64,000 bases of DNA from Myxococcota bacterium (GCA_041288095.1 JBGGMJ010000022.1:21754-85753); one strand, 5' to 3'; positions 9,001 through 12,000 are shown, counted from the first letter of the stretch. Made by a program: the numbers.

Positions 9001-12000
9001 GGGCTCGCGTCATCCGGCGGCGCTCGGCCGTCCGGCGCCTGAAGGCTGGGGTGAGTGCTGGCGCCACTTCGCGGCGCAAGCCCACGAGGTCACGACCCAG
9101 GGCACCGCTACGTGGAACGAGCGCACCTATATGGCGTTCGAGCGCAACGGTACGCTGGTCGACGTCTGGTTCACCTGGTCGCTGTCGCCAATCCGCGACC
9201 TCGATGGGAACGTCTGTGCCGTGCTTTGCACCATGACGGACGACACGGCGGCCGAGCTCGCCGACCGCGAGCGGGCTCAGGTGGAGCGCGCCGAGGCGGC
9301 GTTGTTCGCGGCGCGCGCGCGCCTCGAGAACATCCTGTCCGCGGCCGAGGTCGGCGCTTGGTCACTCGATTTGCGGACCGGCCGCCTCGACAGCGACCGA
9401 AATGTCGCCGAGTTCCACGGCTTGGCTGAAGCCGAGCTCCGTAATCGCGGACCCTCCGCTTTCGTCGACCGCGTCCATCCCGATGACGCGCCGTTACTCG
9501 AGGCGGCGCTGACGCGGGCGCACGATACCGGGGCGTTCTTCGACCCCATCTATCGTATCGTTCGGCCCGACGGCTCCATCCGTTGGATCGCCAATCGTGG
9601 CCGCGTCATCTCCGACGAGAAGGGCGAGCCCGTCTCCATCGACGGCGTGGCGATCGACATCACCGAGCGCCAGCTCGCGGAGCAGCGCCGCAGGCAGAGC
9701 GAGGAGCGCTTGGCGCTGGCGACCCGCGCCGCCGAGCTCGGCATCATCGAGTGGAATGCGGTTTCGGACGTCTCGCTCTGGGAGAACCCACGCACCTACG
9801 AAATCTTCGGCCGCGACCCGGGCGAGGGGCCGCTCAACCGCCGGCAGGCGCTCGAGGCGGGCATCGTCCATCCCGATGACATCCAGAAGTTCGAGCTCGC
9901 ATTGAAAGCGGCGTCACGCCCCGGCGGGACCTTCAAGCTCACGACGCGAATCAAGCGGCAGAACGACGGCGCGTGGCGCTGGCTCGAGCTCGCCGGCGCA
10001 CTCACCACCACCACCGACGGCAAGCCTCTGAAGCTCGTCGCGGTGATCGCCGACATCACCGATCGCAAGCGCGCCGAGTCCGAGCGCGCGCTCCACCTCG
10101 ACTCGGAGCGCGCCGCCCGGACGGAGGCCGAGCGCGTCAGTCACATGAAAGACGAGTTCCTGGCGACGTTGAGTCACGAGTTGCGCACGCCGCTCAACGC
10201 GATTCTCGGCTGGTCCGAGCTACTCAAGGCGGACGGCTTGGCCGACGCGACGCGCCTCCAGGCCGTCGAGATCATCGATCGCAACGCGAGGGTACAGACT
10301 CGTCTCATCGAGGATCTGCTCGAGATGAGCCGCATCATCTCGGGCAAGGTGCGGCTCGATCTGCAGCCCATCGATCTCGCCGATATCGTGGACGCCGCGG
10401 TAGAGAGCGCGCAGCCCATGGCGAGCACCCGTGGCGTGCGCTTGTCGAAGGTGATCGACGCCGGAGTCGGCAAGATGAGCGGCGACCCGGCGCGCCTGCA
10501 GCAAGTCGTCACCAACCTGCTCTCGAACGCCATCAAGTTTACGCCCGTCGGCGGCAACGTCCGAGTGCAGCTGGCGCAGGGGTCGACCGACATCCGGATC
10601 ATCGTCCGCGATAACGGTAGCGGCATCGCGCCCGACTTCGCGCCGTTCCTCTTCGACCGCTTCGCGCAAGCGGAGCCCAGTCACACGCGTCGCTTCGGCG
10701 GGCTCGGGTTGGGGTTGTCCATCGTCAAGCAGCTCGTGGAAATGCACGGCGGCAACGTCACCGCCGAGAGCGCCGGGCTCGGCAAGGGTTCGACGTTCAC
10801 CGTGAGCTTGCCGCTCGCCAGGGTGACCGCGGGAGCCAATGACGACGTCGACGACGCGGTGCGTGGCTATGCCGCCGATGCGGGGGGCCTCGACATCAAG
10901 CTGCTCACCGGTATCAAGATCCTGGTCGTCGACGATGAGCCGGACGCGCGTGAGCTCATGAAGCGGGTGCTCGAGACGCGCGAGGCCAAAGTGGTTACGG
11001 CCGCGTCCGCGGCGATTGGCCTCGAGCTCGTCGAGCGTTACCGGCCGGACATCGTCCTCTCCGACATCGGCATGCCGGGGATCGATGGATACGACTTCAT
11101 CCGCCAGGTCCGTGCCTTGGGCGTGACGCGTGGCGGCACCGTGCCTGCTATCGCGGTCACCGCGTTCGCGCGCGCCGAAGACAGGGAGCGGGCTCTGCTC
11201 GCCGGGTACCAGTCGCACCTCCCCAAGCCCATGCAGGTGCATCAGCTCGTCGCCGCCATCGCGGCGAGCGTCCCTTGCTCACCGTAGACCTCTCGTGAGA
11301 GGCAATCGGCATGCGGATGCGGCGCACGCCACCGACCTCCGAGCGCGAGCTGATGATCCGCGCCGACGCGCTCGCCGGACACAGTGTCGCCGAGATCGCC
11401 GCCGGCATGGGCTGGCCACTGCCGCCCGATGCTCGTCGCGCCAAGGGGTTCGTCGGTCAGCTCATCGAGGCCACTCTCGGCTCTTCACCCGAGGCCGGGG
11501 AGCTGCCCGACTTTCTGACCTTGGGGATCGAGCTCAAGACCATTCCCCTGGCGCCGGACGGCCGGCCGAGCGAGAGCACCTTCTGTTGCTCCATCGACAT
11601 GGACTCCGTGGACCGCGAGCTCTGGGAAACGTCGCGCCTACGCAAGCGGTTGGCGCGCGTCCTGTGGGTGCCCGTGACCGCGGCCCGTTTCGCGCCACTG
11701 CCCGAACGCCGTCTTGGCAAACCCGTGATCTGGAGCCCGTCCGCTGAAGAAGACACGACGTTGCGCCACGACTGGGAGAGCATCGCCGGCGTCATCGGGG
11801 CCGGGGGCTCGGTGACCGCGCACGTCGGCGCCGCCTTGCAAGCGCGCCCCAAGGCGGCGTCGTCGAAGGTGCGCACACTCGGCCTCGCCGAAGATGGACT
11901 CGTGCGCCGCTTGCCGCTCGGTTTCTACCTGCGCACGTCGTTCACCGCGAGCATCGTCGCTTGAGCGCCCCGAGCGAACGGGCCATCCGCGTCCCGGGGC

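Follow-up and report, generated by a model that had tools for sequence, protein, structure and literature searches.

The stretch of DNA considered here, the window, comprises 64,000 nucleotides of a Myxococcota genome (GCA_041288095.1; G000:C22:21754-85753). Positions given for it are counted from its first letter and differ from contig numbering. It carries a gene for an intact stand-alone MutH, placed between two genes listed for context only:

8756..11287, plus strand: PAS hybrid histidine kinase (Pfam), upstream of mutH, context only
11311..11964, plus strand: mutH, predicted stand-alone MutH nicking endonuclease of 217 amino acids (P0001), by homology to solved MutH
11443..11538, plus strand: codons K45, E53, D67, E74 and K76, matching E. 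coli K48, E56, D70, E77 and K79 in the alignment to 2azo
11572..11583, plus strand: codons E88 to F91 (E. coli E91 and F94), GATC specificity, by alignment to 2azo
11845..11853, plus strand: codons R179-P180-K181 (E. coli R184-P185-K186), GATC-reading loop, by alignment to 2azo
11926..11928, plus strand: codon Y206 (E. coli Y212), aligned with the residue that senses the methylated versus the unmethylated strand
11961..12821, plus strand: alpha/beta hydrolase (Pfam Abhydrolase_1), context only and outside the repair system

The start of the hydrolase frame overlaps the mutH stop by four bases, and this gene adjoins mutH in 5 of the 22 loci of the class.

The mutH product is made of a single PD-(D/E)xK domain of about 220 amino acids that aligns over its full length with solved MutH: residues 5-217 match the E. 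coli structure 2azo with an E-value of 1e-51 (phmmer). It scores 232.8 bits against the NCBIfam model NF003458 and 27.1 bits against Sau3AI, which bears out the stand-alone MutH proposed at this place in a preliminary description of the genome. As that description had also remarked, the protein stays under both NCBIfam MutH cut-offs (232.8 for 243 and 196.8 for 229.9); the cut-off is passed by one of the 22 class genomes and by 16 of 161 genomes of the phylum. By its residues and its position in trees, P0001 is a MutH orthologue, not a curated equivalog. K45 corresponds to the DNA-contact lysine and the four residues that follow to the PD-(D/E)xK catalytic centre, all conserved across relatives in the alignment; we take E77 and K79 of the E. 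coli enzyme to have a role in catalysis. For the other residues, passages of one study (PMC10940147) report a loss of activity for D70A, K48A, R184A and Y212S, assign GATC specificity to E91 and F94, and note that changes at F94 alter methylation sensing, while a passage of another credits Y212 with strand discrimination (PMC3089477). The position of Y206 is invariant in one alignment of MutH relatives (A3). The gene is under purifying selection, as comparison with its close relatives L067 and L068 gives dN/dS values of 0.067 and 0.086. P0001 would nick the unmethylated strand of hemimethylated GATC upon activation by MutS and MutL.

MutH is a constant feature of the class, an uncultured group related to myxobacteria. 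Each of its 22 genomes has exactly one match, in keeping with the single copy announced earlier, and the class proteins form one clade, with a support of 98 in one tree and 100/99 in another. Within the class MutH is inherited vertically, and a recent transfer into it is unlikely. In a sample of 161 Myxococcota genomes MutH is present in 47, following whole families: 16/17 in f12, 7/7 in f22, 4/4 in f25 and 2/3 in f29, with none found in f10 (n = 17), f16 (n = 14), f17 (n = 48) or f20 (n = 14). Nine residues (K48, E56, D70, E77, K79, R184, P185, K186 and Y212) are complete in 53 of the 55 Myxococcota sequences aligned; contig ends truncate the remaining two. A dedicated search for longer forms of MutH returned two fusion-like proteins only. 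MutH is seen joined to a 3-methyladenine glycosylase in P0043, to a dephospho-CoA-kinase-like stretch in P0112 and to PF00586 in P0004 and P0005; these could be fusions or read-through artefacts.

Two further genes of interest were found where the preliminary description had placed them, each on a contig of its own and apart from mutH, in an assembly that is 90% complete:

G000:C129:60368-61204, plus strand: alpha-class (Dam/DpnM-type) adenine methylase (P0002), by TIGR00571 and DpnM/Dam homology
G000:C136:28630-30432, minus strand: mutL, by MutL motifs

The methylase reaches 280 bits with TIGR00571 (cut-off 115) and 187.9 bits with the enteric Dam model PRK10904 (cut-off 441), so that it is not an enteric Dam orthologue. 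Its best solved relatives are DpnM (1.5e-65), then Dam (1e-44), and it is 38% identical to Vibrio Dam. The SAM motif, DPPY and the recognition hairpin are all present, and the hairpin, presumably the target recognition element, aligns residue for residue with those of Dam and DpnM. This is the only D12-type match of the genome, and its neighbours are pruA, a GNAT and a GSDH-domain protein. The earlier count of 21 class genomes out of 22 was obtained again (the one without is 65% complete), and the claim that the gene mostly sits beside pruA fits the 15 of these 21 where pruA is within 1.5 kb. The class enzymes form one clade (SH-aLRT 97), and no nuclease of the DpnII family was found in the 22 genomes; as far as such searches tell, the class methylase is solitary with respect to that nuclease family. 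GATC would carry m6A throughout the class. Across the phylum, 58 of the 161 genomes have a match to the alpha enzyme, weak in three of them; D12-family matches in G086, G110 and G102 were judged not to be Dam-like. Second methylase matches were seen at G002:C97:8572-9360, a divergent full copy away from pruA, and at G007:C311:5302-5535, a contig-end fragment adjoining pruA.

The MutL protein of this genome keeps all its ATPase motifs, a recognizable C-terminal domain (MutL_C, 96.9 bits) and QPLLFP. CPHGRP, a motif of the MutL endonuclease, is absent. Where the motif D(Q/M)HA(X)2E is expected, described as that of the endonuclease in a section of a review (PMC8744996), the protein reads DERAAHQR. 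MutL was found in 19 of the 22 class genomes and again forms one clade (support 98). The endonuclease site has decayed in 16 of the 19, in differing ways, while the ATPase is kept: CPHGRP is absent in 16 and DQH[A/T] in 15. The decay claimed earlier for the class thus holds for most members, with three exceptions (G009, G019 and G021) that are fully intact. Since the intact G009 is sister to the decayed G010, the site was lost more than once within the class.

To place this decay in the phylum, 108 MutL C-termini were compared: the 19 of the class, those of 28 of the 33 other MutH genomes (among the five left out, two MutLs were not located, two were truncated and one genome had no MutL match), and 61 from the 114 MutH-less genomes, chosen for family coverage, with f17 represented by 13 of 48. 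Six metal-ligand positions were scored, which we take to be those of Bacillus subtilis MutL, and decay was defined as at most four of six kept, a threshold chosen after viewing the motif data. By the alignment-based score, decay affects 27 of the 47 MutH genomes compared against 3 of the 61 without MutH; by family, 10 of 13 with MutH against 2 of 17 without. An earlier, window-based score (29/47 against 4/61) mis-scored long C-termini and was replaced. The tree requires 11 changes. Related genomes do not count as independent, and the tree offers only five independent pairs, too few for a test, where decay tracks MutH in about 1.6 and never goes the opposite way; a sign test is not significant. 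On these alignments, it is mostly lineages with MutH that show decay of the MutL endonuclease. Rapid evolution by itself does not account for it, since the motif is retained in 11/11 cases in f14 and f16, families with small genomes and no MutH. The association has exceptions on both sides. Twenty of the 47 MutH genomes keep five or six of the six ligands, among them three of the 19 class members and all six examined from f22, in line with the earlier caveat about intact MutLs in some MutH genomes. Three MutH-less genomes (G063, G124 and G140) have a decayed site, and a second search found no MutH in them. Both canonical motifs are kept in 47 of the 61 MutH-less genomes, fewer than the nine in ten or so first put forward, because all 13 examined members of f17 carry a variant motif, most of them keeping the metal ligands. 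This variant reads DPHAALE ... CxHG, without RP (e.g. L254-L264, L205 and L212; 13/13). In G063 and G124 MutL is fully decayed, and neither MutH nor NucS was found; NucS had no match over the cut-off in the five genomes searched for it.

Some MutH genomes lack the alpha methylase, and they had been counted against the proposal as genomes without a methylase. This objection is removed. The five such genomes examined first all have a beta-class N6_N4 methylase, and a beta-class enzyme (DpnA- or CcrM-like) is indeed carried instead by all 15 alpha-less MutH genomes, an observation that is new. A methylase is therefore present in 47 of 47 MutH genomes, alpha in 32 and beta in 15. However, an alpha or a beta enzyme is likewise present in 102 of the 114 genomes without MutH, in agreement with the earlier remark that the methylase occurs without MutH, which makes the co-occurrence weak evidence. 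In all, 149 of the 161 genomes encode an adenine methylase of either type that is conserved and looks solitary, which suggests that a methylation mark extends over the whole phylum and serves more than repair. The beta enzyme was found by profile search in 95 genomes (48/48 in f17, 14/14 in f20, 12/14 in f16, 7/7 in f22 and 4/4 in f25) and in none of the class, f12 or f29. Alpha and beta occur together in only 4 of 161 genomes against about 34 expected under independence, a pattern that is lineage-structured. G039, a member of the alpha family f10, carries the beta type instead. The beta enzymes form two groups. Those sampled from f17, f20, f25 and f30 are 46-51% identical to, and share motifs with, the second methylase of Lactococcus lactis pSRQ700, whose three-gene cassette we take to be DpnII-like and GATC-specific; those of f16, f19, f22, f23, f24, f26 and f28 lie at equal distance from the DpnA-like and the CcrM-like reference enzymes. 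The second group (L341-L359, L362-L364, L367 and L368) is highly conserved and present in genomes down to 1.3 Mb. As for the mark itself, a study of Myxococcus hansupus gives m6A at 31.9% of GATC sites together with PF01555 methylases (PMC4765838), and another used a methylation profile with GATC among its motifs to bin contigs of a Myxococcota of class UBA9042 (PMC12772301); neither paper ties the mark to a gene, and both organisms may lie outside the class studied here.

Short-motif searches point to candidates for other parts of a repair pathway. Motifs of MutS are found on C211, with GDFYE kept, and UvrD-like motifs at the ends of C4 and C49. Partnership between MutH and MutL is textbook knowledge in E. 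coli, and to our knowledge none of the four MutH structure entries listed (PDB 1azo, 2azo, 2aoq and 2aor) contains MutL. A complex predicted for MutH with the MutL N-terminal dimer scores 0.56 against 0.01 for the best control, with runs sharing at least 90% of contacts and a partner pLDDT of at least 83. Of 157 solved pairs, 116 attain the score mark, as do 2 of 215 mismatched ones, and among pairs past it a score of 0.60 or less is found in only 18 solved pairs and both mismatches; the model weakly supports an interaction.

The explanation that best fits these data is methyl-directed mismatch repair with a repeated, unfinished handover from MutL to MutH, to which we give a probability of about 0.8. 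The class probably marks its new DNA strand as E. coli does, and MutH, a solitary Dam-type methylase and a MutL that kept its clamp and lost its metal site were inherited together within it. In such a scheme, the solitary adenine methylase would mark GATC on both strands, leaving the new strand transiently unmarked after replication. MutS would detect the mismatch and load MutL, an intact ATPase clamp that in this genome is predicted to be no nuclease; MutL would activate MutH, resulting in a nick in the unmethylated strand at GATC, and a UvrD-type helicase with exonucleases would excise the tract. That GATC is methylated in the class, that MutH nicks only hemimethylated sites, that MutL activates it and that excision follows in this way are the inferred elements of the scheme. 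With 5.3 GATC per kb (one every 186 bases on average) and only two gaps over 2 kb, the spacing of sites should suffice for repair. As for the order of events, the near-universal solitary adenine methylase probably came first and was exploited by MutH; the MutL nuclease would then have become dispensable and decayed several times. The reading put forward earlier thus stands as to its three parts, their inheritance across the class and the concentration of decay where MutH is present. It has to be amended in that the handover is incomplete (20/47), that whole other families carry MutH, beyond the class, and that what had been called a different methylase is two families of enzymes.

A very different role for MutH would be that of a methylation-gated defence nuclease attacking unmethylated GATC DNA (phage, plasmid or prey), with the lone methylase protecting the cell and MutL decaying by drift. 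The kinship of MutH with Sau3AI-type nucleases would fit, as would the constant company of a methylase and the many genomes where MutH stands alongside an intact MutL. GATC is also mildly depleted in this genome (0.84 of Markov expectation, rank 217 of 256), in line with the earlier remark that it is not enriched; yet the depletion is not stronger than in MutH-less groups, as the ratios of pooled loci range from 0.80 to 0.98 with overlapping intervals and no useful difference between groups, and GATC composition was set aside as a signal. Restriction systems are not typically single-copy and vertically inherited across a whole class, as this MutH is. Moreover, no methylase match adjoins mutH in the 60 mutH loci searched, the protein has kept its single-domain length and the tyrosine that senses hemimethylation, and drift leaves the contrast in MutL decay unaccounted for. 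We find a defence role quite improbable.

It is likewise very unlikely that MutH takes part in mismatch repair with a strand signal other than the GATC m6A of this methylase, either as a mere supply of nicks or by reading another site in lineages with the second beta group. That group has no clear affinity with GATC enzymes, and F94 is replaced by W in four of the seven MutHs of f22 (L277, L278, L281 and L282), at the very residue where changes alter methylation sensing. Within the class, by contrast, all 21 sequences that cover E91 and F94 retain both residues, 21 of 22 retain Y212, and the hairpin of the methylase matches those of Dam and DpnM. Unsignalled nicking would, besides, cut both strands, as unsignalled MutH does in dam mutants. 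The family f22 combines an intact MutL site with a methylase of the second beta group, and the specificity of its MutH may differ. Finally, mismatch repair could be decaying, with MutH and the methylase retained for other jobs (anti-recombination, cell-cycle or gene regulation), since f10 keeps the alpha methylase in 15 of 17 genomes and MutH in none, which implies another role for the methylase, and a few MutH-less genomes have also lost the MutL site, but the intact MutL ATPase motifs, C-terminal domain and QPLLFP, the MutS GDFYE and the purifying selection on mutH leave this last possibility with hardly any credit.

Compared with MutS-MutL-MutH-Dam repair of E. coli and Haemophilus influenzae (PDB entries above; NF003458 and TIGR02248), methyl-directed repair as proposed here likewise has a MutH of one domain in which every catalytic and GATC-reading residue is present, a solitary GATC-type m6A methylase at a separate locus, predicted in the present case, and a MutL with intact ATPase and no metal site. 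It differs in belonging to another phylum, with a methylase nearer to DpnM than to Dam, or of the beta class in other families, and in a MutL motif that is only partly eroded in G000 (DERAAHQR) and intact in some relatives. SeqA, unlike in E. coli, was found in none of the 161 genomes. A non-coding stretch upstream of dnaA with DnaA-box-like words (G000:C173:10250-10700) is a probable replication origin, at most mildly GATC-rich, with 4 GATC in 250 bases against about 1.3 expected; the densest GATC windows inspected for a Dam-type origin cluster are not at dnaA. Neither SeqA nor a GATC-rich origin, the marks of E. coli Dam-SeqA replication control, was found. With the MutL-endonuclease repair of B. 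subtilis and Pseudomonas aeruginosa, the genome shares a MutL with the clamp-binding-like QPLLFP and, going by short motifs, a putative MutS and a putative UvrD-like helicase; unlike there, G000 and 15 of the 19 class MutLs have a broken D(Q/M)HA(X)2E, and CPHGRP is missing as described. The DpnII-type cassette (DpnM, DpnA and DpnII; pSRQ700) offers a counterpart to both methylases, the alpha enzyme being DpnM-like and the beta enzyme of f17, f20, f25 and f30 resembling the second methylase; unlike in the cassette, no DpnII nuclease was found in the class and the two methylases replace each other between lineages. Nor is this a Sau3AI-type nuclease, a two-domain protein of about 470 residues: the 217-residue MutH has no second Sau3AI domain and no adjoining methylase.

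MutH outside enteric bacteria has precedents, since Putnam in 2016 reportedly described it in non-enteric Gammaproteobacteria (Methylophaga, Legionella). Their MutHs are 39-47% identical to P0001, whose named relatives at 39-52% identity include Polyangiaceae, Lujinxingiaceae, Methylophaga, Legionella and Vibrio; the class MutH is not nested among them, and its nearest relatives are other Myxococcota. MutH was found in 34 of 121 sampled Gammaproteobacteria, a tally that includes the unpublished G288 and G210, both excluded from the trees. Two Sau3AI-like proteins served as the root. The rooted trees and the AU test omit near-identical rows, the G009 fragment and two long rows, G098 and G073; the second tree and the AU test also omit G045 and G102, both placed with gammaproteobacterial rows by the first rooted tree. 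The class groups with other Myxococcota (96/92), and a separate, mainly gammaproteobacterial clade (96/96) includes three rows labelled Myxococcota. In free trees with this root Myxococcota MutHs form a basal grade with the gammaproteobacterial ones inside; the AU test gave this nesting no backing, a single Myxococcota clade being compatible with the data (p 0.518). L067, labelled Bdellovibrionales at 91% identity, fits the MutH data badly, and L094 and L114, a Bacteroidota bin and a Klebsiella-labelled bin, carry a divergent gammaproteobacterial MutH; the three labels are probably mislabels or binning errors.

Passages of reviews confine methyl-directed repair to a few gammaproteobacteria and hold MutH to be recent (PMC8744996). 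A search of literature titles and abstract openings, with subscription papers and preprint supplements beyond reach, returned no report of MutH repair in Myxococcota, and no myxobacterium was found in the supplements of Blow et al. 2016 (PMC4752239); automatic annotation will already label some Myxococcota MutHs, since 16 of 161 pass the cut-off. It is possible, though we hold it doubtful, that MutH-directed repair is old in Myxococcota, perhaps arose there where one or the other of two unrelated classes of methylase already marked GATC across the phylum, and later passed to Gammaproteobacteria. If this were true, the phylum would preserve every stage of the switch, from methylase only, to methylase and MutH with an active MutL, to MutH with a dead MutL site, the last stage having been reached independently many times. 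The methyl-directed reading itself would give a second phylum with MutH families, two interchangeable classes of methylases, no SeqA found and living intermediates of MutL decay, making the origin of E. coli-type repair something that recurred and can be compared, no longer a one-off event. It opens the way to testing whether MutH and an active MutL nuclease can coexist, and which of them repairs. A further prediction is that GATC is methylated in most Myxococcota, a point that bears on their transformation.
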